The notes under the pieces are model-generated. The model saw nothing but the letters and a program-made list of their open reading frames with translations, was not told where the DNA came from and made no database searches. This document shows positions 548 through 19,893 of a stretch of DNA of 21,637 nucleotides, piece by piece (position 1 is the stretch's first letter; each line of letters begins with the position of its first letter). Origin of the DNA: Candidatus Asgardarchaeum abyssi (GTDB taxonomy: Archaea; Asgardarchaeota; Asgardarchaeia; Asgardarchaeales; Asgardarchaeaceae); NCBI GenBank assembly GCA_040225955.1, contig JBECUL010000037.1:1-21637 (forward strand), in the 5' to 3' direction. The position numbers were made by a program, and so were the translations under genes.

Positions 548-2170
548 ATGACTGTCGAGCTTGAAAAGCTTTTCAATAAGTACATAAATTACATTGCTGA
601 TGAGTATGGTCTTAAAGTACCTGATCTATTGCCACATATTACCCTTAAAAGGATTGATCGTTACTGCGAAGTAGGGGAACTAAAATGGTCTTGGGGTGTT
701 TGTTATAAAAACAAAGAAGAAATCATAGTTGATGAAAATCTTGATAATAAAATAATAAAGCTTGTCCTAGCTCGTGAAGCCTTTAATTTGTGTATTCCAT
801 CGTCGATATCACATATAGAAATAGCTAAGGATTTAGGATGGGCATTTGCATTAAATATAACGAAGGATAAAAAACTTCAAAAGGAATGGATTAAAATATG
901 GAACAAAATCGTTGGTAGCATTAAGGTGAATCATTTACTTTATTGGCCATCTAACTTCTTTTATGCTGCCTATGTTATAAAAAAAGATCAATTTCTTAAG
1001 AAATTAATTTTTTACTTTAAGTGGCTCGAGAAAGAAAATATAAAGGTGAGCGAAGAAAATTACGTAAAACTAATAAAGGAAATGCTTGGCGAGCTAGGAT
1101 TCAAGTTCAGTGATACGGATATTAAAATAATAGATCTATTGATTAAGAACCCGAATGTTACCAATAAGGAAATTGCAGAAAAGATTAACATATCGTACCA
1201 GACTGTACATAAAAGAGTTAAGAAACTTAAAGAGATTGGTGTATTACATTGTGATTGGTATATTAATTATCAGAAGATTGGTGTAAATATTTTAAACTAT
1301 CACATCGATCTATTAAACAAAGATGATAGTATAAAAGAAACTTTAAAGAGAAATCCTTTTTTGTATGCACTTACAGAATATTATGATACTTTGAAAAGTT
1401 ATGATGCCACTTTTCTTGTTCCACTTCATCCTCATAACTTTCATCTGATGAATTTGCTTGAGAAACCATTGGAAGAACATTGTCACAATTTGATAGTTTT
1501 TAGACCCTTTTGTGCTCGTTATGGCTGGAATTTCCGTCTTTATGATTCAAAGTCTCATAGATGGAATTTCAATCCTGATGTATGGCTGTTAACTGTAAAT
1601 AGAATGAAAGATTATGCAGATTTGATATATCCTTGTCCAGGCAAGCTTCCTGATATGAAGAGAATAGTTAATATAGATAAGAGAGATATAGAGATACTAT
1701 ATCATGTTAGCGTAAAAGGTATTTCATCAATCCGTGCTCTAAGGAGCATATTAAAAATAAATACAAATGAACTTATAGCCAGAATTAATAGATTAAAAAA
1801 GAATGGAGTTCTCTTTAAGCAAGTAAGTCTTCGTTTCACAGGCTTAACAGACAATCTCTCTATCTTTCTAAAGATGAAAAAAGAGAACGCTCCTCTATAT
1901 TTTATTGCAATATCACAGATACCTTATCGTTATTCATTAGCGCAATATGAAAATAATTTGTTTGTCATCAAGGGCATTTTATTTCTACCTAAGGGAACTG
2001 CAATAAAAATGATGCAATACCTCTATACATTTTTCTCTAAATATACTGAGTTTATAGATATACACTTTGGTGGTTTGTCCCTAAGCACTCTTAGTCCTTT
2101 TAATCCATCTTGGTGGGATGAAAAAAGAAATTGCTGGAAAGCCTATGATGAGATTATGGAGACATACTAG
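548..2170 (+). CDS. Large transcriptional regulator: N-terminal degenerate IrrE/ImmA-like domain plus two Lrp/AsnC-type wHTH modules
   Basis: 540 aa. HTH1 is DTDIKIIDLLIKNPNVTNKEIAEKINISYQTVHKRVKKLKEIGVL and HTH2 is DKRDIEILYHVSVKGISSIRALRSILKINTNELIARINRLKKNGVL. Each is followed by a RAM-sized alpha/beta segment. Confidence 0.8.
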   Translation: MTVELEKLFNKYINYIADEYGLKVPDLLPHITLKRIDRYCEVGELKWSWGVCYKNKEEIIVDENLDNKIIKLVLAREAFNLCIPSSISHIEIAKDLGWAFALNITKDKKLQKEWIKIWNKIVGSIKVNHLLYWPSNFFYAAYVIKKDQFLKKLIFYFKWLEKENIKVSEENYVKLIKEMLGELGFKFSDTDIKIIDLLIKNPNVTNKEIAEKINISYQTVHKRVKKLKEIGVLHCDWYINYQKIGVNILNYHIDLLNKDDSIKETLKRNPFLYALTEYYDTLKSYDATFLVPLHPHNFHLMNLLEKPLEEHCHNLIVFRPFCARYGWNFRLYDSKSHRWNFNPDVWLLTVNRMKDYADLIYPCPGKLPDMKRIVNIDKRDIEILYHVSVKGISSIRALRSILKINTNELIARINRLKKNGVLFKQVSLRFTGLTDNLSIFLKMKKENAPLYFIAISQIPYRYSLAQYENNLFVIKGILFLPKGTAIKMMQYLYTFFSKYTEFIDIHFGGLSLSTLSPFNPSWWDEKRNCWKAYDEIMETY

Positions 2171-2201: not shown

Positions 2202-3179
2202 CTAATAGCGCTTGATATCCTTATTCAATAAATCACTATGTTTTATAAGGCTCTCCATGATTGTTGCCATCGTTGAGAGTGAAATATTTTTTGTGTTTCT
2301 AAACAAATTTTCATTATGTATTAATATCTCGAAAAACAACTTCCTAATACGCCTGCCAGAGAGTCCTTCAGTCATTTTAATAAATCTCTGTAAATACTTC
2401 TCATAATCCTTATCATTTTTCTCCATTAATCTGTTATTAAAAATGCTCTCTAAGGCACTTAAAGTGTCTTCTATAATCAACTTTCTCATTTTTTCATTCG
2501 GTAGGTCTATCCTTATCAACAAGTCAACTCTATCAACAAAAGCCTCATCAAGGGCTTTGGGATAATTTGAGGTTGTTATAAGATAAAGATTATCATTTCT
2601 TGACAATAAATCTAACTGGTTCAACGTTTCATTAATTCCTCTGAAAACATCAATTGGATTTACATCAGAAATCGCTACACCTCTACTTACGAGAAGAGAC
2701 TCTACTTCATCAACAAGTACAATAACTTGCTTATTATCATCTGCAATACTATTGAGATACGTAAATGCTAAATTAATAAATTTAGGTGTTTCTCCAAGAT
2801 ACTTAGAAAGCACACTAGGAGCACTAATCTCAAAAAATAATACCTCTCCACTATAATTTAATTCATTGTAGAGTGTTTGTGCAAAAACATTAGCTAAACC
2901 TCTTGCTAATGATGTTTTTCCAGTTCCTGGTGGGCCATATAAAAGAAGTAACCTATGAAGAGCGAGCGATAAGTCTTCGATACCTTTGTTTTTCGTTCGA
3001 AAAAGCAATTTTAAGTAATTTAAAAGTCGAGTTTTAATTTCGGGTGGAACAAAAATTTTATCCCAAAAACTATTCCAGTCATTCCTAGGCAGTTTAATTG
3101 CAATTGAAAAATAGGCTAAATATTCTGGTGGTATATCAATAGTATAATCTATAGGAAAATCGCTTTCCCTGCGACTCAT
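2202..3179 (-). CDS. Pch2/TRIP13-family AAA+ ATPase
   Basis: Walker A GPPGTGKT, Walker B VLVDEVES, NPIDVFR helix, TTSN sensor 1, AFVDRVD arginine finger, GLSGRRIRKL sensor 2 and an N-terminal LP...WD motif. The start is placed at ATG 3179 because GGTG and a TATA box (about 3195-3205) lie upstream; the track's TTG at 3248 is less likely. Confidence 0.85.
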   Translation of the reverse strand: MSRRESDFPIDYTIDIPPEYLAYFSIAIKLPRNDWNSFWDKIFVPPEIKTRLLNYLKLLFRTKNKGIEDLSLALHRLLLLYGPPGTGKTSLARGLANVFAQTLYNELNYSGEVLFFEISAPSVLSKYLGETPKFINLAFTYLNSIADDNKQVIVLVDEVESLLVSRGVAISDVNPIDVFRGINETLNQLDLLSRNDNLYLITTSNYPKALDEAFVDRVDLLIRIDLPNEKMRKLIIEDTLSALESIFNNRLMEKNDKDYEKYLQRFIKMTEGLSGRRIRKLFFEILIHNENLFRNTKNISLSTMATIMESLIKHSDLLNKDIKRY

Positions 3180-3481
3180 AGTTTGCACCATTGATTTATA
3201 TAATTTTTGTAAGACATTAAAAAAGTAATTAATAAATTTTCCTTCCAAAATGTAACTTTATAATTAGGTGCAAAATTAACCTTTTTTGCAAATCTTGGTA
3301 CTAATCAGATTCACACGATAGTTTGAAAACAAGATATCCCTTAGAGTATCGATAATCTCCATTAACATCATTTTAGAATAAATAAAAAACTATACCAACC
3401 TAATTGCAATATATAACTTACTATTTCCTCCAGCAAACTTTCAAGTACGCGAGTATTAACAAATTGGGTTCGTAATTTTTA

Positions 3482-4432
3482 TCATTTAAACTTTGGTATG
3501 ATATGTTCCTCCACTATTCTCATCATTTCTATTTCATATTTGTATGGAAACATAAGTATCACAAGCTCGATGCCGAGTTTGCAATATTCTTTTAGTTTCT
3601 TAATTATATCATCTGGAATGCCTATTAAGAGGTTCTTCTTTTGTTCAAGAAAATCATTAGGAGAAATCCCTTTCCTCTTTGCAAGTTCTTTAATTTTACT
3701 CCATAAGGATTTTTCATTTTCAGCTATTACTGTGATTAACCCGATGGACTTTCTAATATCATTAAAATTTCTGTTTATTTCCTTACAGTATTCTTTTAAA
3801 ATCTCAAGTCTCTCCTTATACTTCTCAGGCGATAATGTCCAAGCAAAATTTAACCCATCTGCTAACTCTGCTGTAACTCTAAGAAGCCTATTACTAGTCC
3901 CACCTACCCATATTGGTGGATGTGGCTTTTGTACAGGCTTTGGAACATTAATAGCCTCTTTTATTCTATAATATTTTCCTTCAAAAGTTGGTGCATCTTC
4001 GGTCCACATCTTTTTCAGTATTATAATTGCTTCTCGCAACTGTTTTATTCTAATAGATGTTCTAGGAAAGGGTATTCCATATGCCTCATATTCAATCTCT
4101 TTCCAGCCAGCACCAATTCCAAACTCAACCCTCCCATTACTAATGACATCAACGCATGATACAATTTTAGCAAGGACCGACGGATATCTATATGACTGGC
4201 AAGTAACCAAAGTGCCAAGTCTTATCCTTTCTGTTTGCGTAGCGATTGCAGTTAAAATTGTCCATGTTTCGAAACAATTTTTATCTATTGAGTTCTTATC
4301 CAAGAAAAAATGGTCTGAAAACCATATTGAGTGAAAACTTGATTTATCCGCAGTTAAAGCAATCCTTTTTATTTCATCATAAGTAAATCCAAACTGAGGC
4401 TCTATCTGAATCCCAAACTTTAATTGGCACAT
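3482..4432 (-). CDS. LLM-class (probably F420-dependent) oxidoreductase
   Basis: WFSDHF, RLGTLVT..SYRYPSVLAK, DVISNGRVEFGIGAGW, PKPVQKPHPPIWVGG motifs. Confidence 0.92.
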   Translation of the reverse strand: MCQLKFGIQIEPQFGFTYDEIKRIALTADKSSFHSIWFSDHFFLDKNSIDKNCFETWTILTAIATQTERIRLGTLVTCQSYRYPSVLAKIVSCVDVISNGRVEFGIGAGWKEIEYEAYGIPFPRTSIRIKQLREAIIILKKMWTEDAPTFEGKYYRIKEAINVPKPVQKPHPPIWVGGTSNRLLRVTAELADGLNFAWTLSPEKYKERLEILKEYCKEINRNFNDIRKSIGLITVIAENEKSLWSKIKELAKRKGISPNDFLEQKKNLLIGIPDDIIKKLKEYCKLGIELVILMFPYKYEIEMMRIVEEHIIPKFK

Positions 4433-4511: not shown

Positions 4512-5327
4512 GTGTTATTCATTATGACATTATTACCATATATCTCTTTTCACACTCTTTTCATAATGCTTTTTGTGTGTATTATAATAGTGGCACTAAC
4601 AATCTACTCTCTCTACGTTTTCCCATGGATTACTGGCTATCTGAAACTTGAAGTACAAAATTTCAATATTAAAGAAAATTCAAGAATTCTAATAATATCA
4701 GATTTACATATTAAATATAAAAAACAAAGGCAACCGAACCTTGATAAACTTCTCAAGATAATAAGAGAAAAAGAGATAGACACGTTAATTATCGCAGGCG
4801 ACTTCTTAGATAATCACTTAAAAATATCTCTTAATCAGCTGAAAAATATAGTAATTGAAGGATTGTCAAAGATTGGGGTTGACAAATTTGCAAACTTAAG
4901 GGTTTTCTATGTAATGAGTCTATCTTCTCACGACCCAATAATTAATGACACACTCATTGAATTTGAACATGATGACTCCCTAAAAGTGACTATAGTACGA
5001 GGGGCTCTTAAAATAACTATTGGTAACTGTAACTTTTTAGTTCTTCATGGAGATTATGCAGCACGAAATGGTGCTGTAGCCAGGTTCATAAATCTGTTAA
5101 TGCTGAAACTTAGGAAACAGCAACTATATATAGAGAAGTTGTTAAAAAGAAAACTACAATTATCTAAGAATGAATGGTTAATTATGGGCCATACACATAT
5201 AGCTGGAATTGACTATAAGTATAAAGTCGCAAATTGTGGTTCTTGGAGCGGGCATCTTGGTAGATTTAAAACTGAAACTGCATTATTCTTAGAAAAAGGA
5301 TGTCGCTTTACTCTCCTACAACTATAA
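4512..5327 (+). CDS. Membrane-anchored calcineurin-like metallophosphoesterase
   Basis: N-terminal hydrophobic segment and ISDLH, AGDFLD, SSHD, LHGD, MGHTH, NCGSW motifs. The start may be ATG 4524. Confidence 0.85.
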   Translation: MLFIMTLLPYISFHTLFIMLFVCIIIVALTIYSLYVFPWITGYLKLEVQNFNIKENSRILIISDLHIKYKKQRQPNLDKLLKIIREKEIDTLIIAGDFLDNHLKISLNQLKNIVIEGLSKIGVDKFANLRVFYVMSLSSHDPIINDTLIEFEHDDSLKVTIVRGALKITIGNCNFLVLHGDYAARNGAVARFINLLMLKLRKQQLYIEKLLKRKLQLSKNEWLIMGHTHIAGIDYKYKVANCGSWSGHLGRFKTETALFLEKGCRFTLLQL

Positions 5328-5328
5328 T

Positions 5329-5943
5329 TTAGAATATTTTTTCTCCCATAACGTTCGGATTATTGTCGTATATTTCTTTTATTTCAAATATATAAACGGG
5401 AGTTTCTTTCCATTCTCGTCTTTCATACTGATCTGGAGTTACGTGAAACAAATCATGTACTGCGTTTACAAACTCCCAATAGAGGTCATCGGTATGAATG
5501 GTCGCTTTACATCGTACTTCATATGTTGTACTTGGAGGCATAAAGAATAATATTGTTGCATCGTTATTATCTTGCAAATTAATCCAAGTATGTTTTTTGG
5601 CGAGCTCAATTGTTGAAAGTTTATAGAAATCTACTTTTTCATCATCATACACGGTTTCCAATAGTAACCTTATTCTCTCTTTCAAGACTATATTCTTATT
5701 CAATGCCTCTTTTAACTTTTCAACGGAATCTTTCAAAAACTCTTCTTTAACAACAAATCCAACTCCTTTTATTGAAGCATTAAGTCCTGCTGGTCCATGT
5801 GTGATAATAGCAGGGGTGTGTCTTAAGAACCCTACAAGTGTATCTTCTTGTGTTAGCTTATTGTTTAGCATCTTCAATACGAGCTCTCTTCTCTCATAAA
5901 AAGCCCATTTTATAAATTTCTTAGGTATGGCTTTACTTACCAT
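5329..5943 (-). CDS. Conserved hypothetical protein, probable pyridoxamine 5'-phosphate oxidase-like FMN-binding split barrel
   Basis: HTWINLQDNNDATILF..P..TYEVRCKA and VYIFEIKEIYD resemble this fold. Confidence 0.6.
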   Translation of the reverse strand: MVSKAIPKKFIKWAFYERRELVLKMLNNKLTQEDTLVGFLRHTPAIITHGPAGLNASIKGVGFVVKEEFLKDSVEKLKEALNKNIVLKERIRLLLETVYDDEKVDFYKLSTIELAKKHTWINLQDNNDATILFFMPPSTTYEVRCKATIHTDDLYWEFVNAVHDLFHVTPDQYERREWKETPVYIFEIKEIYDNNPNVMGEKIF

Positions 5944-5954
5944 ATTTTTATCAC

Positions 5955-6701
5955 CTATCTGCTTATTTTTTCTTGAAAAATAGGCAGTGAGAATATCTGC
6001 TTCAAATTATTTATTATAAACTTAGGTATTTCCATTTCAGAGGACGGAGAAACATTTTTGAAAATGCCTCGTTTTATCCATACCGAAATAATTCCCACTC
6101 TATTAGCTCCAAGAATATCTGTTTTTACATTATCACCTATCATCACACACCTATTTGGCTTGGCTCTTGCAATTTTTAAGGCATATTTGAATACCTTTGG
6201 AGATGGTTTGTTGCACCCAACCTCTTCAGAAAATACCAATATATCAAAAAATTGCGAGATTCCTAATGCCCTTAATCTTTTCTCTTGGATCTCTATTAAT
6301 CCATCACTTATAATTCCCAATCTAATTCCTAGATTTTGGAGGCTCGAGAGTGTTGGAATTACATCAGGATACGGCTTTATGTTACTAAAAACATAATTCC
6401 AAAACTTCATTGTTAGCAGCTCAATTAAATCCTTATTGGGATTTATTCCTAAAATTTTTAGTGTTTCTCTAAATCTTATTCTTCTATCAAAAAGGCAAGG
6501 TTTTCCTCTATAGCGTTTATAAATGTTATCTGTTGCTTGTTTAAGTGCCTCTAAAAATTTTTTTGAGTTCGCTATTCCCAATGCTTGGATTAATTCTGCA
6601 ACTCCTTTGTTTGCAGCTTCCTTTACAGTTTCAAAATCATAAAGTGTTTCATCTAAGTCAAAAAACACAACATCTATATTCATCTTATCACCGGTCACCA
6701 T
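5955..6701 (-). CDS. HAD-superfamily hydrolase (subfamily IA)
   Basis: Motif I DLDETL, motif II ISDG, motif III KP, motif IV GDNVKTD. An alternative start is ATG 6683. Confidence 0.92.
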   Translation of the reverse strand: MVTGDKMNIDVVFFDLDETLYDFETVKEAANKGVAELIQALGIANSKKFLEALKQATDNIYKRYRGKPCLFDRRIRFRETLKILGINPNKDLIELLTMKFWNYVFSNIKPYPDVIPTLSSLQNLGIRLGIISDGLIEIQEKRLRALGISQFFDILVFSEEVGCNKPSPKVFKYALKIARAKPNRCVMIGDNVKTDILGANRVGIISVWIKRGIFKNVSPSSEMEIPKFIINNLKQIFSLPIFQEKISR

Positions 6702-6846
6702 TTACCTCTTACTTTGGTGATTTATACTATATATAAATTCAGTCAAAATGTCAATTCTACATTATTATGTGTTTATCTTTTGCTAAAAACTTATTACTAC
6801 CTATGACAAATCATTAGATATCTACGTAACTTACTTAATTATTTAG

Positions 6847-7668
6847 GTGGTCCACTTGGTTGATGAACGAATCGTGTTAAAAATTGGAGGATCTGTTCTC
6901 ACAGACAAAACAAAAGAAGAGCTATTGATAAAATCTGAGCTCATAGACAAAATTGCTGGTGAAATAAAATCTCTAATGGACAAAGGTTTCACATTTTGCA
7001 TAGTTCATGGAGTTGGAAGTGCTGGCCATCCCCCAGTTAAGAAATACAAATTACATTTAGGTTTCCAAAGTAAGGATCAATTAATTGGATATGCAGAAGC
7101 CCAAAATAGAGTAAATAGACTCAGACAGGAGGTTCTAGACTCCTTAGAAAGACATGGCGTTCCAGCTATCGAGTTCTATCCATCATCAATGATAATAAGT
7201 AACAAAATGATAGTAACAAAGTTTTTCTCTGAGGCTATGGAACGAATTGTTTCGACAGGTGTGGTGCCGGTTCTTTCTGGAGATATGGTTGCTGATCTTG
7301 CTATGGGGCTTTCAGTATGTTCAGGAGATATTCTTGTATTTGAGCTAGCACGAATATTTGGTTCTAAGAAGATTCTCTTTGGTGTTGATGTAGATGGTAT
7401 TTTCTCTGGTGATCCTAAGAAACAAGAAGCAAAGTTGATTGAAAACATTAACGTGGAACTATTACCTGAGTTGCTTAAAGAAGCCGGTGGTTCTTCAGGA
7501 ATTGACGTTAGTGGTGGTATGAAGGGCAAAATAAAGACCATGCTTCTGTACAAGAACTTCTTTGAAGATGGAGGAGAGGTAATAATTTTTAATTTAACAA
7601 ATCCAGAAAACCTTAGTAAGGTTTTAATGAATCCAGAGTCGGTAAAATTCACAGTTATCCGAAAATAG
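6847..7668 (+). CDS. ipk: Isopentenyl phosphate kinase (amino-acid kinase family)
   Basis: LKIGGSVLTDK, VHGVGSAGH (IPK-diagnostic His), VPVLSGD, SGD, DVDG, DVSGGMKGK. The start may be TTG 6856. Confidence 0.85.
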   Translation: MVHLVDERIVLKIGGSVLTDKTKEELLIKSELIDKIAGEIKSLMDKGFTFCIVHGVGSAGHPPVKKYKLHLGFQSKDQLIGYAEAQNRVNRLRQEVLDSLERHGVPAIEFYPSSMIISNKMIVTKFFSEAMERIVSTGVVPVLSGDMVADLAMGLSVCSGDILVFELARIFGSKKILFGVDVDGIFSGDPKKQEAKLIENINVELLPELLKEAGGSSGIDVSGGMKGKIKTMLLYKNFFEDGGEVIIFNLTNPENLSKVLMNPESVKFTVIRK

Positions 7669-7781
7669 GAGCCAATATCTTTAAATTTATTTTTATTTTT
7701 TATAAAATCCGCTTAAAGAATCTTTTTATATTACTTGATTTCAAATCACATTATCATCTATTTATATAAGGTGGTCTGCTG

Positions 7782-8549
7782 ATGAATAATCCAATACCAT
7801 TCCTGCCTGTCTTTGTATGGAACATGATAGCGGGCATAGTCTTTCCACTTGTTTACATATTCTTTGTCATAGGCCTCATGGGAAAACTTGTTGAGAAGGG
7901 TTTTCCTCAGGATCTATCAAGAAAAGTAATTCACATTGCTGCTGGTAGCTGGATATGGGTATGGCCTTTAATAGATCCCTCCGATGGATGGTCGTACATA
8001 TTTAACATAGCTGTTGCAGCCCTCTGGACTCTATTATTCATAAATAAAGGTTTAAAAGGAACGCCCGATGACACTGCTGTTAAAACCATGACACGAACTG
8101 GTAATCCAAAAGAGCTTCTACTTGGGCCACTATTCTTTACACTCTCAATGGAATATATTGGAATACTGCACTTTATGACATACATTGGTGTCGTAGTTAT
8201 GGGATATCTTGGTTGGGGCGATGGACTTGCGCCATATATAGGTGCAAGATACGGAAAGCATAAATACAAATTATTAGGCAGAGAGAAATCAATTGAGGGC
8301 AGTATAACTGTATTCCTTGCTGGATTCTTAGGAGCCTTGCTATTGTATGTCTTAGTATTCTACAGTTTTCCAACAATTGAGATGCTTATGTGGATGATAA
8401 TACTCGGTATTATTGCCACCATAGTTGAGGCAGTAAGTCCATCTGATGTAGATAACCTGCTAATTCCCGCTGTGTTATTAATCATAGCCTACATAATATC
8501 TGTTACCACTGGAATTTCTCTTTTCGAAACGGTAATCCCTCATTTCTAA
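7782..8549 (+). CDS. Phytol/farnesol/dolichol kinase-like integral membrane kinase (cytidylyltransferase family)
   Basis: Multiple transmembrane helices and SRKVIHIAAG, GWGDGLAPYIG, KSIEGS, DNLLIP motifs. Confidence 0.85.
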   Translation: MNNPIPFLPVFVWNMIAGIVFPLVYIFFVIGLMGKLVEKGFPQDLSRKVIHIAAGSWIWVWPLIDPSDGWSYIFNIAVAALWTLLFINKGLKGTPDDTAVKTMTRTGNPKELLLGPLFFTLSMEYIGILHFMTYIGVVVMGYLGWGDGLAPYIGARYGKHKYKLLGREKSIEGSITVFLAGFLGALLLYVLVFYSFPTIEMLMWMIILGIIATIVEAVSPSDVDNLLIPAVLLIIAYIISVTTGISLFETVIPHF

Positions 8550-8625
8550 TCTCTTTTTATATCTTTTCTTCAATTTCCGGCTTCTCCAAAATTTCATATA
8601 TCTCTATATCCATTCTTTATTAGAG

Positions 8626-9894
8626 TTGATGCTAATGATAATCCATCCATCTAAAAAGTTAATAGGAATGAAAAGTAGCCTTTTAAAAGGGAAAAGAATA
8701 ATTCTGGGTATCACTGGAAGCGTGGCTGCTATAAAAGCACCAGATATCGCACGCGAGCTAATGAGACACGGTGCTGAAGTCTTTACTGTGATGTCTGAAA
8801 TGGCTAAAAAAATTATTCATCCATATACGATGGAATGGGCTACGGGGAATCCCGTGATAACCGAGCTTACGGGAAAAATAGAACACGTGTCACTTGTAGG
8901 CGAAGAAGAACATATATCAGATGTTTATCTGATAGCTCCTGCAACTGCTAATACTATAAGTAAAATTGCAAATGGTATAGATGATACACCAGTTACAAGT
9001 GTGGCTACAGTAGCTCTTGGCTTAAAAATTCCTATAGTGGTTGTGCCAGCAATGCATGATGCCATGTATAATAATCCATTTGTAAAAGAGTCTATTGAAA
9101 AATTAAAGAGACTTGGTATATATTTTGTTGATCCATTGATCGAAGAGGGGAAAGCAAAGATCGCACCTCTTGAAGAAATAGTTCTTGAAGTTATGCGAGC
9201 TGCGTGTGATAAAAAGGATTTGATTAATTGTAACGTACTAGTAACTGGTGGTCCAACGCGAGAGTTTTTAGATCCAATTCGCTTTATTTCCAATCCAAGT
9301 AGTGGTAAAATGGGTTTGGCTATAGCCGAATCCGCATATATACGAGGAGCTAATGTCTATCTTGTTATGGGTCCTAACAATCTTTATATTCCGCGACAAA
9401 TAAATTGTGTATCTGTTACCTCTGCTCAAGAGATGTTTGATACTGTTTTTAAAATACTTAATAGGAGTAAAGCTGATATATTTATCAGCGCTGCTGCTGT
9501 TGCGGATTATACTCCAGAAAAGAGAGAGACTGCCAAAATACGTTCCGATAAAGAGAAACTCCAAGTAATTCTTAAGAAGACACAAAAGATAGTAAAAGAA
9601 GTCAAACGTAAATACTCAGATATTCTCGTTGTGGGATTTAAAGCAGAGTCAAATATGACGGATGAGGCGCTAATAAGAATAGCAAAGGAGAAAATTAATG
9701 AATACAATATAGATGCTGTTGTCGCAAATGATATAAGCAGGCAAGCATCTGGTTTCGGAAAGGACTATAACGAGGTAATAGTTGTTACAAAATCGGGATA
9801 CTATGAGAAAATAGGACCGAAGATAAAAATAGAAATAGCTGATAGAATATTTGATATTTTGAAAAGGGAGATGGCATCGAAAGATGAATCCTAA
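8626..9894 (+). CDS. coaBC: Bifunctional phosphopantothenoylcysteine decarboxylase / phosphopantothenate-cysteine ligase
   Basis: [68 protein letters not shown]. Confidence 0.96.
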
Positions 9895-10426
9895 AAAGCT
9901 AAGATTTCGAATTAAACTCTGGATTGAGCAAAACGGAGCAGACATATTAGGCGAAGGAGGGGCAGAGCTTTTAAAAGCGATACAAGAAACTGGGTCTATC
10001 GCCAAAGCAGCTGAGAAGATAGGAGTTTCTTATAAGTTTGCGTGGGCTTATATTAAGAAAATTGAAAAAAACCTTGGAGAGAAAATAGTTATTACTCATA
10101 AGGGCGGCGTTAAAAGGGGATGGGCAAAGTTAACAGAAGCTGGTGAGCAATTGCTTCAAATATATAACTTAGCATATTCTGAAATGAGAAACTGTTTAAC
10201 ATCCATTGAAACACCGTTGTCATTTGGTATTGTGAAAAATAATATAACAATAAAAATAAAGGAAATTCGAGAAGGGGAAGAGACATCAATAATAATTGGT
10301 ACTATTCAGAAAAATACAGCTTTAACCGCAGTAATAACGACTGAAGCTTTAGAAAGTCTCAATCTTAAGAAAGGTCTTCCATGTAAATTCTTAATAAAGG
10401 CGACAGCAATAAATGTGAGGTTATAA
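9884..10426 (+). CDS. modE: ModE-family molybdate/tungstate-responsive regulator (wHTH plus one TOBE domain)
   Basis: LLKAIQETGSIAKAAEKIGVSYKFAW, GG...G.A.LT and C-terminal TOBE VITTEALESLNL...IKA. Overlaps coaBC by 11 nt. Confidence 0.85.
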   Translation: MNPKKLRFRIKLWIEQNGADILGEGGAELLKAIQETGSIAKAAEKIGVSYKFAWAYIKKIEKNLGEKIVITHKGGVKRGWAKLTEAGEQLLQIYNLAYSEMRNCLTSIETPLSFGIVKNNITIKIKEIREGEETSIIIGTIQKNTALTAVITTEALESLNLKKGLPCKFLIKATAINVRL

Positions 10427-14110: not shown

Positions 14111-14902
14111 ATGGCTTCTGAGCTTGTAGAGGAAAGACTAAAGGATATGCTGTTAAAGAAACAATTTAATGAACTTTCTAATCTTCTTCTAAGAAAATAT
14201 CCAAACAAAATAGACATGGTAATAAAATTCTTGAAAGATAAAAATCCAATGATAAGAGGGAATGCAGCTCTTCTAATAGGCCTTATTGGAGAGAAGAATC
14301 CTGATATTGTTTCAAAGGCAATTCCAGTCTTAGTTAAAATTATGAAGAAAGATAATGTTGCTGTTAAAACATCTGTTGTTATAGCATTAGGTCGTATTGG
14401 GAAGGGGAAAATAACTTTAGTTAGTCCAATAGTCCCAGAAATTATAAAATTTCTAAAACATAAATCCCCCGCTATGAAACAAAGTGCTATTGTTGCTCTA
14501 AGTCATATTGGTAGCATTTATCCTGGGGTTGTAAAAAAGGCAGTTCCTATGATAATTGCTATGCTAGATGATCCCGATCCCACGATTCGCGAAAAAGCAA
14601 TAATGGCAATAGGACTTATTGGAAGTGCTAACATACATATGGTTAAAGAAGCAATTCCAATTTTAATTGATCTTCTATCAGATGAGGATTCGTTGGTAAG
14701 ACGAGCAGCTGCTGAAACCTTAGGAATACTCTCAGAGCAGCATCCTGAGGGTGTAAGAACAGCAATCGTAAAGCTACTAAAACTACAAGCACAAGGGGAA
14801 ATATGGTATGTTAAAGAAATGGCTCGTGACGTACTGCAAGATTTATGCTCTAAGCTAGGAATCGATATAAGACTTATAGCAAAAGAAAAACAAGTCTTAT
14901 AA
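14111..14902 (+). CDS. HEAT-repeat protein
   Basis: About five 37-38 aa repeats of the form AIP.L..LL.D.D..VR..A..ALG.IG. Confidence 0.92.
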   Translation: MASELVEERLKDMLLKKQFNELSNLLLRKYPNKIDMVIKFLKDKNPMIRGNAALLIGLIGEKNPDIVSKAIPVLVKIMKKDNVAVKTSVVIALGRIGKGKITLVSPIVPEIIKFLKHKSPAMKQSAIVALSHIGSIYPGVVKKAVPMIIAMLDDPDPTIREKAIMAIGLIGSANIHMVKEAIPILIDLLSDEDSLVRRAAAETLGILSEQHPEGVRTAIVKLLKLQAQGEIWYVKEMARDVLQDLCSKLGIDIRLIAKEKQVL

Positions 14903-16369
14903 TCAGGTAAACAGAGCCAAGAATTGAGAAACAGAGCAGGTATCTCCTAACCCAACAGTTTTTAAGGGATTTTCAACAAACTTTATAGGTATTGCGATTA
15001 ATGAAAAATTATCTGTTTCTATAAATCCATCTTCAAGTAAATTTCCATCTGTAGCTGAATGTTTTTCTCTTATTAATTTATCTAAATAGTTCATAGTCTT
15101 AAATGCACGCTCTTGATAGTAAAAGGCATTCTTATTCTCTAGCATGTTTCTAATTTCCATTAGTGAAGGTTCTTTTCCCAAAATCGCTCTTACGGAAGTT
15201 ACCAATGAACCGAATAATGTAGCATTTAAGAATTTCTCAATTTTCATATCTCTGTTATTCGTTACTGGAGGAGTTATAAAGAATGTGGTATCGAAAGTGT
15301 GTAAATGAATTGATACGTTTATGTTTGATAAAATTTTAAGAAAACCAGTTAAAAGCTTTTTACATCTTTCCTCTATAGATATGTTAGTACTTTCCTTTGT
15401 ACCAAAAAAATAAATATAAAACTCATTTTCATTTAAGCTAATTATATCAACATGGGGTAAAATTGATTGTTTTATCTGACTAATGATATAATCATCAGCA
15501 GTTATTCCAAGCTCATATTTAATGAGGAGATTTCGGTTCGCTTCTTTGATTGCTTTAATGAAATTTATTGTTTCATTCATTCTCTCATCAATAAACTTCT
15601 TACCCAGTGAGGAATCGATCAAGTGATGACCTGCGATAATTCCTCCATGGAAATCTTTTGCATGAATCACAAGATATTCTTTAAGATGCTTGTCTATTGT
15701 AAGCATTGAATTTATTGGATCATATGTGGCGATAAACCTAGTACTATTTGGAACAATGAATGTTTTTCCATGAATTGCAGCAGAAAAGCCTTTTTTAAAT
15801 TCAAAAATCCAATGAATTAGCTCCTCCTTTTCAGTAGCTATTATATATGGAGAAAATAGCTTAATGCCTCCTCCAGAACTTCTAGCAACAAATATCTCTT
15901 TAAAGAGTAGCGATGCTAAAGTTTTGGTCATAACTGGCGCGTTTATGAGTATATTTTTTATACCTAGAACACTAGCGGTATTTGCCATAATTCCTGCTTG
16001 TCCACCTATTGAGAGTAGATCATACTGAACATTCTTATTTATCCAATGATATACATTCTCATCTACAATTTTCCACTCTTCTCCGATACCATGTTCCATA
16101 CAATAAGTAAGACCGATAAGTAAATCATCTAAATTCTTTATCTTTTTCTCTCTGAGTCTTTTTCTTTCTATTTTATTTATTTTTGTATTTTTTTCTAAAA
16201 GTTTTAAGAGCGAAGCATCTACCTCTCTTATGGCATCAACATTTATATTAAAACCAAAAAAGAAGTTTTTTAAGAAGAGAAACCTTGAGCTTACTGAATC
16301 GTATGCCGACCTATATTTTTCATCCCAAATTTTAATTAATTCCGTTATAGTTTTTTTAGTCATTTTCAA
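14903..16369 (-). CDS. ADP-dependent glucokinase/phosphofructokinase family protein, probably glucokinase-type
   Basis: GFNINVDAI, GGQAGIMAN, IHWIFEF, RFI, NENE (NxxE), HLHT, TVGLGDT with the catalytic Asp. The start is TTG 16369 or ATG 16363. Confidence 0.9.
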   Translation of the reverse strand: MKMTKKTITELIKIWDEKYRSAYDSVSSRFLFLKNFFFGFNINVDAIREVDASLLKLLEKNTKINKIERKRLREKKIKNLDDLLIGLTYCMEHGIGEEWKIVDENVYHWINKNVQYDLLSIGGQAGIMANTASVLGIKNILINAPVMTKTLASLLFKEIFVARSSGGGIKLFSPYIIATEKEELIHWIFEFKKGFSAAIHGKTFIVPNSTRFIATYDPINSMLTIDKHLKEYLVIHAKDFHGGIIAGHHLIDSSLGKKFIDERMNETINFIKAIKEANRNLLIKYELGITADDYIISQIKQSILPHVDIISLNENEFYIYFFGTKESTNISIEERCKKLLTGFLKILSNINVSIHLHTFDTTFFITPPVTNNRDMKIEKFLNATLFGSLVTSVRAILGKEPSLMEIRNMLENKNAFYYQERAFKTMNYLDKLIREKHSATDGNLLEDGFIETDNFSLIAIPIKFVENPLKTVGLGDTCSVSQFLALFT

Positions 16370-17718
16370 TCCTCAAAAGGTATTTCTATTTCCATATTTT
16401 CCTCTCTGTCAGTCAGCTGATTGTAATATTTCATTGAAATTGTTATTAATGTTCCTGGACTTACCCCCCTTATTTCTATATCAAATGAAACCTCTTCACG
16501 CTCTTTTATTTTCTCTAGGTTAAATTCGTTCGGCTCTATGGCTAAAACTGGTGAAAGTTTTATCGAAATATCAGATAATACAATTTTACTTATATTCTTG
16601 AGTAAGAGTAAATATTTGTTTTCTTGCCTTTTTATCACAAAAGCTTCAAATTTTGGTGTTTGCATTCTTTCTATATCTTTTTCAATAATTTTGATCAATG
16701 CAGGAACTCTTGGATATTTATCAGTGCGCATGACTTCTTTTATTTTTTCAAGCCGTTGATATATGTAATCGCAATCAATTCCAAAATTCTTAATTTTTTT
16801 CAGCTCCATATCGATTTTTCTAATCTTCTCCTCAACAGCCTCATTGAATTTATATCTTGTATTAACAAGTACTGAAAGAGAATCCAAAGCGTTTTTCGCA
16901 GCGTTATATTTTTTTGAGTCGATAAGTGAATTTATTCTCTCCGCAACTCTAATCGCATCATCCATATATATGTATTCTTTAAGGTCATTTAGTGCGCTTT
17001 TTAAACTCTCAAACCGATCAAAAATTTGTTTATAATCATTAATTACGTTGATAGCTCTATTTTTTATATCAGAATACTTAGTCTGCACTTCTTTAAATGT
17101 ATACTTCTCAAAATTATTGCGAAGAGCATTTATTTCCTCAAAGAAAGGTTCAACATTTACTTTGTTTTTATAAATCTCTAGTATCTCTAGGAATTCATCG
17201 ATATCCCCGACAATGTCTAACCATTCAGAATAATTAGAAAGTAGAGAAAAATACATCTCCTGACATTTTTTAAAGTTTTTATCAGATATATTCATAACTT
17301 TTATAGACTTTAGTTTTCTCCTTAAATCTGCAGGAATTGGGGTAGGTGAGCTCTCAATTCTTCTAATCAATATTGTAACTCTTTTCCTTAGTTGGTTAAT
17401 AATTCTTCCTTCCAGCGATGATGTGATCTCTTTAAGAGAGGCCTCTCTTGCTCTTTTTAGAGTCTCTAAGATATCGTTATATTTCTTTATTATAGCGAAA
17501 TCTTGCTCTATACCGTATCCTAATAAGTCTATAATCTTACTAATATAGTGTGTATTCTTGTTCTTAGAAAAATCGATTAACTTTTGTTTTATTAAATTTA
17601 ATATCTCGTCATCTCTCAAAGCATCTACGATATAACTAGGGGTCTCATTATAAATTTTATTAATTTCTTCAAAATCATCGGATTGAAGAGCGTGCCTTAT
17701 TATGTCTAGGCCAGACAA
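16366..17718 (-). CDS. Hypothetical protein: long helical/coiled-coil region plus C-terminal Ig-like beta-sandwich
   Basis: 450 aa, TTG start with GAGGG upstream. About 350 aa are charged and helical, then LLLLKNISKIVLSDISIKL...F.LEKI...EEVSFDIEI...ITISMKY suggests beta strands. Confidence 0.75.
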   Translation of the reverse strand: MSGLDIIRHALQSDDFEEINKIYNETPSYIVDALRDDEILNLIKQKLIDFSKNKNTHYISKIIDLLGYGIEQDFAIIKKYNDILETLKRAREASLKEITSSLEGRIINQLRKRVTILIRRIESSPTPIPADLRRKLKSIKVMNISDKNFKKCQEMYFSLLSNYSEWLDIVGDIDEFLEILEIYKNKVNVEPFFEEINALRNNFEKYTFKEVQTKYSDIKNRAINVINDYKQIFDRFESLKSALNDLKEYIYMDDAIRVAERINSLIDSKKYNAAKNALDSLSVLVNTRYKFNEAVEEKIRKIDMELKKIKNFGIDCDYIYQRLEKIKEVMRTDKYPRVPALIKIIEKDIERMQTPKFEAFVIKRQENKYLLLLKNISKIVLSDISIKLSPVLAIEPNEFNLEKIKEREEVSFDIEIRGVSPGTLITISMKYYNQLTDREENMEIEIPFED

Positions 17719-17913: not shown

Positions 17914-18633
17914 TTATTCCTTTGTTAGTCTTATCATATAATCTACCACATACTCTTCAAGTAGATCATCAAAGGATTCCGGTTTATCTTCTTGTATCTT
18001 ATAAACATCAATACTTATTTCTTTATCCTTCTTTTTTATGTCATCAACTATATTATTAATGTCATCATCATCAATAATATTCATGTTTGGATCTTTTGAC
18101 AGTATCCCAATTAAAGAGAACTCATTGCAGTACTTCCTTGCTTCATTTATGAATTTTATTGCACTCTTGAGAGATGCAGGTTCTGAATATCTGAAGAATA
18201 CTATAACTCGCTGTGCACCATAATAAAACTTTGGCCGGATATGATGAAATCTATCATTTCCGTTAAGATGAAAAACTTGTAAAATTACCAAATATGTAGT
18301 TCTATCCTTCTCAAGAAGCAGCCTCGGGAGATAAAAATCAACCCCTATAAATAACAAATCCTGGAAACCCTTCTTAACGGAATCAAAATATTTACTCCTA
18401 TTAACTAGCTTTCGTACATCTTCTAATCTATCACCAATTAAAATAAACTTCAGATAAACAAGTCCTTTTTCTTTTATACTTTCTATGGGTTCTTCAGGAG
18501 GTATTCTTATTTTTATATCGAATGGATATTTTTTAGAGGCATCCTTATCACCTTTCGAATATCTCAAACTATGCACAAAAGTAGTACCAAGACATTCCTT
18601 GTAATTCTCCTTACTTTGTTCATCTCTTCTCAT
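17914..18633 (-). CDS. Rab-like small GTPase homologue with degenerate nucleotide-binding motifs
   Basis: LKFILIGD, IGVDF, ILQVFHLNGNDRFHHIRPKFYYGA, VIVFF...PASL follow the Rab G-domain order. There is no GKT/S, DxxG or NKxD. Confidence 0.75.
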   Translation of the reverse strand: MRRDEQSKENYKECLGTTFVHSLRYSKGDKDASKKYPFDIKIRIPPEEPIESIKEKGLVYLKFILIGDRLEDVRKLVNRSKYFDSVKKGFQDLLFIGVDFYLPRLLLEKDRTTYLVILQVFHLNGNDRFHHIRPKFYYGAQRVIVFFRYSEPASLKSAIKFINEARKYCNEFSLIGILSKDPNMNIIDDDDINNIVDDIKKKDKEISIDVYKIQEDKPESFDDLLEEYVVDYMIRLTKE

Positions 18634-18879: not shown

Positions 18880-19446
18880 TCATTCAATGGGTTTTTTAAT
18901 TTCATATGGTTTCCATCCATGTCTTTGGCGAAAGTCATTAATAAGTTTAATCGCTTTTTCTTTTTCTTCCTTAGGCATCTTTTTACTTCTCAAGACACCC
19001 ATAAATAAAACGTATGTTCTCGCTTGTATGGTTCTTGGTGAAATCTCATGCTTTAAATCCTCCTCCATCTCATCAAGGATCGCCTTCACTTCCTCAGCAT
19101 GGCTTAATCCTTTCGCCCCTATGTCACGCACTTGCCATCCTAAGTATAAGTGACCCTTGTTAACGACGATAAATTTACCATCTTCATAAGTTATTCTTCC
19201 TTTGGTAATTCTATCATAAAACTCCCAGTTGTCTGCCCACTCTGGGTTTCTTTTTCTTAATTCCTTAAGCACAAATCTTCTAATTTCAGTGGTTCTCATC
19301 CCATCTGTGACCTTCTTCTCAATCTCATCTGCTATTTCGTGAGCATCCTTTTCTGTTGCTCCTGCATTCATACAGCTTCTGACTATTTTCTCTTTATCAA
19401 AATCTTCCTCTCTACCATCTACTTTTATAACTCTAATTTTCGCCAT
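18880..19446 (-). CDS. ATP-cone domain protein with unknown C-terminal domain
   Basis: VIKVDGREEDFDKEKIVRSC..AGA...TTEIR..V...L is an ATP cone. GAGGTGG ribosome-binding site upstream. Confidence 0.85.
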   Translation of the reverse strand: MAKIRVIKVDGREEDFDKEKIVRSCMNAGATEKDAHEIADEIEKKVTDGMRTTEIRRFVLKELRKRNPEWADNWEFYDRITKGRITYEDGKFIVVNKGHLYLGWQVRDIGAKGLSHAEEVKAILDEMEEDLKHEISPRTIQARTYVLFMGVLRSKKMPKEEKEKAIKLINDFRQRHGWKPYEIKKPIE

Positions 19447-19539
19447 GTTACCACCTCAAGTTTGATTATCCTCTATTAGTTTAAAAACTAATTAATTCCA
19501 ATCAATAAAATATTCATTTTATAAAGTGACTTTAAAATT

Positions 19540-19893
19540 TTACTCGAAAAGTAAGTTGTAATACTCCAAAAGCAGATCTTTTTCTCCTTCGACCTTAAAT
19601 TTGCCAGCAAAGTATGCAGAAAAAACATTCTGGTTTTTATTTAATATGTCTAAAACTACCTCTTTTTTTGCTGAAATTATTATATTTGGCACTATGTCTT
19701 CTTCAGCATCGACTTGTAATATCTCTATTGTGCCTCTTTTGAGTATTAATAACAAACCTTTGTTTTCATCAGTAATCTTTAATTTTACAATCAAATTAAG
19801 ACTTTTAAGTCTGTCAAGTTTCTTAGGATCCTTTAAAATGTTATTCTTTCTTTGCTTCAGAATTTCAATTAAATCATCCACCAATATCACCAA
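19540..19893 (-). CDS. SCP2 sterol/lipid-binding domain protein
   Basis: PNIIISA....LDIL.....FSAYFAGKFKVEG matches the SCP2 C-terminal pattern. Confidence 0.75.
   Translation of the reverse strand: MVILVDDLIEILKQRKNNILKDPKKLDRLKSLNLIVKLKITDENKGLLLILKRGTIEILQVDAEEDIVPNIIISAKKEVVLDILNKNQNVFSAYFAGKFKVEGEKDLLLEYYNLLFE

Follow-up and report, generated by a model that had tools for sequence, protein, structure and literature searches.

The TRIP13/Pch2 motor normally works with HORMA or anti-phage partners, and the question raised by this locus is what such a motor might do in an archaeon whose gene for it lies among metabolic genes. The window, by which we mean the whole stretch of DNA analysed (21,637 nucleotides), is the entire contig C37 of the source metagenome-assembled genome (MAG) of Candidatus Asgardarchaeum abyssi (2.64 Mb, 189 contigs, 93.5% complete, 7.8% contamination), and DNA of the stretch 2202–3179 is also present in several sediment and hydrothermal metagenomes. 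An earlier sequence-only reading had proposed a domesticated archaeal TRIP13 acting on unlinked HORMA proteins or on a new substrate and relevant to the origin of eukaryotic HORMA signalling. The features concerned are as follows (L003 and L102 are loci of relatives).

548–2170, plus strand: convergent gene for a 540-amino-acid wHTH/AsnC-type regulator, syntenic in L003 (36%) and not near the L102 copy of TRIP13
2202–3179, minus strand: TRIP13/Pch2-family AAA+ ATPase gene, 325 amino acids, a single AAA module without an N-terminal domain
2337–2366, minus strand: sensor 2 segment of the lid, residues 272–281, with R276
2529–2531, minus strand: presumed arginine finger R217, invariant among aligned relatives
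2565–2576, minus strand: presumed sensor 1, N205
2706–2723, minus strand: Walker B, ending in D157-E158
2790–2807, minus strand: pore loop 1, residues 125–130, with Y127/L128 aligned with human W221/F222 (PMC5717197)
2913–2936, minus strand: Walker A, residues 82–89
3180–3481, minus strand: AT-rich upstream region of 302 bp, presumed promoter
3186–3189, minus strand: GGTG, Shine-Dalgarno-like, just ahead of the ATG; L003 and L102 have comparable words
3482–4432, minus strand: luciferase-like monooxygenase gene, upstream of TRIP13
4512–10426, as a block: syntenic metabolic genes, common to GCA_052584985.1

The reading frame at 2202–3179 on the minus strand is open over all 325 codons with zero internal stops, the plus strand there is rich in stops, and the ATG at 3179 matches the N-termini of orthologues. 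Walker A and B, pore loop 1, sensors 1 and 2 and the arginine finger were all found, as had been claimed; the roles of N205 as sensor 1 and of R217 as arginine finger are those we assume from general knowledge of AAA+ proteins. The TRIP13-type motifs quoted in the sequence-only reading are likewise all present, with the correction that LP and W in the first of them are separated by three residues, not two. The claim that a large N-terminal domain is missing also held: the AlphaFold model (pLDDT 85, pTM 0.85) has only ~30 residues ahead of the AAA core, and the N-terminal domain of ~100 residues (PF23563) was not found by Pfam, by alignment or in the model. The Pfam TRIP13 lid profile matched under its cut-off (E = 7e-4), and no conserved C-terminal proteasome-docking motif was found in the protein. 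Residue E158 corresponds to human E253, the site of the trap mutant (PMC5717197).

Assignment to the TRIP13/Pch2 family was consistent across methods. The PADLOC model PDLC00915 for TRIP13 matched the protein with an E value of 5e-60, compared with 3e-21 for IetA and 9e-15 for the other TRIP13 model. A search of PDB sequences gave E = 3e-36 for Pch2/TRIP13 versus 6e-27 for CDC48, with C. elegans PCH-2 and human TRIP13 as the five best matches. The first 15 Foldseek matches of the AlphaFold model were all PCH-2, TRIP13 or E. coli Trip13, and TM scores by query were 0.69–0.75 for eukaryotic TRIP13/Pch2 structures (human 5VQA and 6F0X; C. elegans 4XGU). In a phylogeny that included CDC48, PAN, Vps4 and other AAA outgroups, the TRIP13 clade containing the window protein had an SH-aLRT support of 100, and grouping with generic AAA+ proteins was not seen. 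Given that profile, sequence, fold and tree all indicate TRIP13, the protein is not a generic AAA+ ATPase; it is a real, intact member of the TRIP13/Pch2 family, as first proposed. The source genome also encodes its own Vps4 (on contig C10), three CDC48s and a PAN-like ATPase, and the idea that the protein replaces Vps4 was rejected because of that Vps4.

The called neighbours of the gene are metabolic or regulatory, in agreement with the sequence-only reading, and the gene lies outside any defence island. The syntenic block comprises genes for a metallophosphoesterase, a 204-amino-acid ORF, a HAD protein, an AA_kinase, a 255-amino-acid membrane protein, a CoaBC-type flavoprotein and an HTH_1 regulator. 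The monooxygenase gene is missing at the relative's locus and is therefore not a conserved partner. A promoter of its own, also proposed earlier, is plausible for TRIP13 in view of the 302-bp gap and of the L003 orthologue, which is divergently transcribed; the TATA-like words lend it nothing, given that they occur at shuffle frequency (three seen, 2.3 expected), including the one near 3216–3223 that aligns with L003. A ribosome-binding-like GGT(G) word precedes the gene in all three Asgardarchaeia lineages. Elsewhere, the regulator at 548–2170 carries its wHTH/AsnC-type modules behind an N-terminal region and has a paralogue on contig C24. The window further encodes a HEAT/Armadillo-repeat protein (14111–14902), an ADP-dependent phosphofructokinase/glucokinase directly behind a 450-amino-acid helical protein on the same strand (14903–17718), a divergent Ras/Roc-like small GTPase domain (17914–18633; Pfam Ras E = 2e-6, partial match), and an ATP-cone protein with a stand-alone SCP2 sterol-carrier domain (18880–19893).

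The closest homologue (62%) belongs to a genome annotated as 'Ca. Asgardarchaeia archaeon' (GCA_052584985.1, locus L003), in which the neighbours of the orthologue match the source genome at 36–87%, the same metabolic block is present, and no HORMA or cyclase was detected within 10 kb. At L003:10941–13152, TRIP13 is separated from the regulator by a CARF-wHTH (Csa3-like) gene and a TPR gene; neither occurs in the source genome, and they were rejected as conserved partners. A more distant TRIP13 (about 41%) occurs at a different locus in a further Asgardarchaeia MAG (GCA_052584825.1) and in a related metagenome contig, 4 bp behind a lipoate-ligase gene and with no HORMA nearby. No neighbour gene was common to all three Asgardarchaeia lineages in the neighbourhoods fetched. 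Solo TRIP13 genes near lipoate-related genes were seen at L102:8938–10993, L006:2349–4305 and L020:1643–4226, the neighbours being a lipoate ligase, a lipoate synthase-like radical SAM gene and a dihydrolipoamide-dehydrogenase-like gene, none of which adjoins the window copy; this adjacency of three solo TRIP13s may possibly be due to chance.

Four Asgardarchaeia sequences form one clade (100/97), the fourth of which (P0004) is assigned to the class by similarity only. The class was first recovered as a single MAG (PMC10307638), and the source genome is the sole member of its class among the genomes compared. Profile searches of 399 further Asgard genomes, with the best five candidates per genome scored, yielded no other TRIP13. 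A match in G286 was a Vps4, with which the match in G287 grouped, and a match in G068 was a generic AAA protein without TRIP13 motifs; the latter (L197:1381–2286) is a small IetA/SpoVK-like ATPase that scored just over the classic AAA background. For the syntenic pair of TRIP13 genes, synonymous sites were saturated (pS 0.78) and pN was 0.25, compared with 0.24 for CoaBC and 0.23 for HAD; codon usage was at the genome median (CAI 47th and GC3 48th percentile), and in one metagenome strain six of seven substitutions in the gene were silent. Codon usage and amino acid divergence are thus like those of housekeeping neighbours, so that the description of the gene as domesticated holds, with monophyly over three lineages and synteny pointing the same way. 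The gene looks old within Asgardarchaeia and was not detected outside that class among Asgard genomes.

The same data bear on whether the gene is a decaying or neutral remnant of a type III CBASS operon. Although its best score is to the model of the two-HORMA Cap6, the motifs are intact, constraint is at housekeeping level, the gene is solo and devoid of CBASS context in relatives, and the protein falls outside the clade of the verified CBASS Cap6 of L022, from which starred branches separate it. The remnant explanation, in particular a recent remnant, is therefore largely refuted, and we give it hardly any chance.

Neither a HORMA protein, a CD-NTase nor an effector was found in the window or in the operon of the gene, and no HORMA was found in the neighbourhoods of relatives L003, L102 and L192. 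Profile searches of the source genome were also negative, both with Pfam bacHORMA_1, bacHORMA_2, HORMA and SMODS and with two PADLOC HORMA models and a cyclase model, and purpose-built profiles, derived from the HORMA genes that adjoin related ATPases, matched nothing in all six frames. The absence of HORMA or CBASS neighbours noted earlier thus extends to the genome as searched. Among 400 Asgard genomes, bacHORMA_2 gave no match over its cut-off; a weak HORMA match in G356 was an artefact on the opposite strand of an acetyltransferase-like gene, and candidates on contigs C2, C80 and C122 of the source genome were not significant. In a leave-one-out test, the profiles easily recovered typical HORMA2 proteins but failed on one divergent second HORMA (E = 0.08) and on two of the five Cap8-like proteins (E = 0.39 and 5), so that absence of HORMA is likely, short of proof.

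It would accordingly be conceivable that the ATPase still acts on an unlinked HORMA protein of the host, one of the two substrates first suggested; such a protein would have diverged beyond the reach of profiles or be encoded in unassembled DNA. Counterparts of the residues that couple p31comet–Mad2 to TRIP13 are present (an aromatic pore loop 1, and by alignment K133 for human K227 and N183 for human N278), near relatives are HORMA-linked, profile sensitivity is limited, and about 6.5% of marker genes are missing from the assembly. Nine HORMA profiles run over six frames of this 93.5%-complete genome nevertheless gave nothing credible, with divergent HORMAs being poorly recovered by such profiles. 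The best weak matches were a 637-amino-acid ORF, which looks to us like a beta-CASP nuclease, and a 140-amino-acid ORF with no HORMA among its Atlas matches. Moreover, none of the three loci has a HORMA nearby, whereas the prokaryotic HORMA-using systems compared here are operonic. The searches thus lend an unlinked HORMA substrate no support, although their sensitivity for divergent Cap8-like HORMAs was poor, and we consider such a substrate rather unlikely. Given that neither a HORMA nor an anti-phage partner was found, the window TRIP13 probably has another job. A scan for Thr/Ser-ladder N-termini as a mark of clients gave 17 matches versus ~40 expected and hence no client.

The relation of the protein to eukaryotic TRIP13 was addressed with a main tree (LG+C20, 66 sequences, 289 columns), with fragments, multi-domain matches of at least 700 amino acids and one-HORMA (E. 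coli-type) Pch2 left out of all trees; eukaryotic sequences are labelled mostly by motif and length rather than by name, P0139 is long-branched, and composition differs among sequences. The Asgardarchaeia clade falls within a larger prokaryotic TRIP13 group (97/80). Other members of that group include an acidic clade that is probably haloarchaeal, several cyclase-less systems of bacterial appearance, a bicupin-paired clade and the Cap6 of L022. The 97/80 branch separates the Asgardarchaeia sequences from eukaryotes, and the split is kept in an outgroup-rooted quick tree (SH-aLRT 92). Forcing the two together cost 28.7 log-likelihood units and was narrowly rejected (AU p = 0.045). Sequences nearer to eukaryotes than the Asgardarchaeia clade include P0163, P0175 (from a Ca. 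Xenobia bacterium) and P0239/P0274, and cyclase-less TRIP13-HORMA operons branch closest to eukaryotes, with weak support (81/56).

The sequence-only reading had also described the protein as a mosaic of bacterial-like and eukaryote-like segments. The listed segments do exist, but the 'eukaryote-like' label does not fit them, given that they occur in many prokaryotic TRIP13s (for example, P0007, P0126 and P0128); the pore-loop-1 word also occurs in Vps4 and CDC48. Motifs typical of eukaryotes (KWFSES, EPSD and RKLP) are absent from the window protein and partly present in P0163, P0175 and P0153. Judged from sequence comparison, these segments represent features of ancestral TRIP13 or of classic AAA proteins, and the protein is a deep prokaryotic TRIP13 rather than a mosaic. 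Homology of the bacterial N-terminal extensions of P0126 and P0007 to the eukaryotic N-terminal domain found no support (hhalign probability of 0.2%).

One reading of the Asgard host is that the enzyme is a relic, inherited vertically, of a TRIP13 that the Asgard ancestor of eukaryotes already had. It would then be a eukaryotic signature protein that most Asgard lineages have lost, and it would act either without HORMA or with an unrecognised proto-HORMA. If true, eukaryotic checkpoint remodelling would derive from the archaeal host and not from a CBASS operon acquired from bacteria. Among solved structures, the best matches are indeed eukaryotic, the clade branches deep with moderate backbone support, and the AU rejection is borderline. 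Set against this are the lack of a TRIP13 in the 399 other Asgard genomes, the persistent branch between the clade and eukaryotes, and the eukaryotic pore-loop and post-Walker-B motifs, which the window protein lacks and P0163 and P0175 partly have. A bacterial origin was also inferred by Tromer et al. (PMC6601020). We regard the relic reading as highly improbable. The Asgardarchaeia TRIP13 does not appear to be ancestral to the eukaryotic checkpoint enzyme, and its link to eukaryotes is weak; the suggested bearing on the origin of eukaryotic HORMA signalling is undercut by its place on the prokaryotic side of the tree, its restricted distribution in Asgard genomes and the presence of other prokaryotic TRIP13s nearer to eukaryotes.

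Several near relatives of the window TRIP13 sit in TRIP13 + HORMA operons in which no cyclase was detected. P0163 and P0239 are encoded in operons of TRIP13, a Cap8-like gene and HORMA2 without a detected CD-NTase (L107:10001–12357 and L188:7963–9761); P0163 is carried by an element with Cdc6 and an integrase (L107), and the L188 operon adjoins a HerA-like ATPase. The ATPases of L107 and L188 branch nearest eukaryotic TRIP13 with weak support, and P0163 has eukaryote-type motifs. The operons at L103:6609–10202, L104:2611–6214 and L016:4541–6588 look bacterial and are likewise cyclase-less; they combine TRIP13 and a Cap8-like gene with one or two genes of HORMA2 type, and some ATPases of this type have an extra ~90-amino-acid N-terminal domain with no shown homology to the eukaryotic one. 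In acidic, probably haloarchaeal TRIP13s (P0129, P0140, P0143, P0144, P0166, P0188 and P0214), a domain fused at the C-terminus matches Cap8-like HORMA proteins from operons (cross-profile E = 6e-8), and these TRIP13s are likely TRIP13-HORMA fusions.

A further conceivable role is that of a host counter-switch that resets HORMA proteins delivered by proviruses or integrated plasmids with TRIP13-HORMA modules. Integrated-element-like TRIP13 + HORMA loci do exist, and at least one of them, L107, shows archaeal marks (Cdc6 and an integrase). But these elements bring a TRIP13 of their own, the Asgard genomes searched yielded neither such an element nor a HORMA, and the gene is not in a defence island. 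We consider this role improbable.

We instead favour, at about an even chance, the view that the motor stems from a mobile TRIP13-HORMA module and has been re-used on a non-HORMA client in Asgardarchaeia. To our knowledge, every TRIP13 substrate that has been tested is a HORMA protein, which counts against such a client. On the other hand, independent TRIP13 lineages without linked HORMA (L018 and L023–L025; L006; L020) make a non-HORMA client plausible. On this view, the enzyme would be a protein remodeller of TRIP13 type, driven by ATP and standing alone, that became fixed in Asgardarchaeia. From what is known of the family, it would assemble into a spiral hexamer, its pore loops would grip an exposed unstructured terminus of the client and unfold it locally, and the client complex would thereby be reset or disassembled. 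In bacterial Pch2, a pore-loop spiral grips the extended N-terminus of the HORMA substrate, with the cyclase as adaptor (10.1101/694695), and human TRIP13 requires W221, F222, K227 and N278 (PMC5717197). Given that the window TRIP13 has kept an aromatic pore loop as well as the equivalents of K227 and N278, its threading machinery is probably functional.

As to history, an ancestor of the sampled Asgardarchaeia may have acquired the gene from a mobile pool of cyclase-less TRIP13 + HORMA modules. The HORMA genes would then have been lost, as would the C-terminal tail that several HORMA-linked relatives carry. That tail is absent from the window TRIP13, but tails are also short in the HORMA-linked P0163 and P0239, and its loss is therefore weak evidence. 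The motor itself would have been retained to serve a host client other than HORMA, in a housekeeping task such as activating, repairing or disassembling a metabolic or regulatory protein.

In the mainly open-access literature searched, we came across no earlier description of TRIP13 from Asgard archaea or of a solo TRIP13 from any archaeon, and the main text of two 2026 Asgard surveys does not mention TRIP13, Pch2 or HORMA. A small TRIP13 without an adaptor domain, kept without HORMA, would provide a clean test for non-HORMA clients of this motor family. It also cautions that an Asgard homologue of a eukaryotic protein need not have been inherited by eukaryotes. For the origin of the module, the cyclase-less TRIP13-HORMA operons may be of more consequence: they branch nearest to eukaryotes, with weak support, and at least one is carried by an integrated element of archaeal type.

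Comparison with known systems places the enzyme as follows. Vps4/CdvC, CDC48 and PAN share with it the classic AAA+ fold and a similar pore loop 1, but they score much more weakly and lie outside the TRIP13 clade; the protein lacks the MIT-type N-terminal domain of Vps4/CdvC and does not fall in the Vps4 clade. The two-HORMA Cap6 of type III CBASS (PDLC00915; P. aeruginosa type, 10.1101/694695; L022) is, like the window TRIP13, a single AAA module of ~300–325 amino acids without an N-terminal domain and belongs to the same TRIP13 clade (~32% identity to L022). Unlike Cap6, the window TRIP13 has no HORMA, CD-NTase or effector found in its operon or genome, keeps a pore loop 1 of the classic aromatic kind, has no histidine following the conserved NP.D motif, and forms a separate branch. 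Eukaryotic TRIP13/Pch2 proteins give the best sequence and fold matches, with catalytic residues and the K227/N278 equivalents conserved; the window protein differs in lacking the N-terminal domain and the eukaryotic pore-loop, EPSD and RKLP motifs, in having no detected Mad2-, p31comet- or HORMAD-like partner, and in not being sister to them in trees. Tromer et al. described TRIP13 in bacteria and Haloarchaea and did not mention the class Asgardarchaeia for it, and TRIP13 without an N-terminal domain was already known from CBASS and Haloarchaea (PMC6601020). The haloarchaeal HORMA-Trip13 operons (Tromer et al. 2019, PMC6601020) likewise contain an archaeal TRIP13 of prokaryotic type, but one that is operonic with HORMA, whereas the window TRIP13 is solo. 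The bicupin-paired bacterial clade (L018 and L023–L025) also has a HORMA-less TRIP13 among metabolic genes; the window TRIP13 has no bicupin gene directly upstream, no bicupin homologue was found in its source genome, and the two stand on separate branches.
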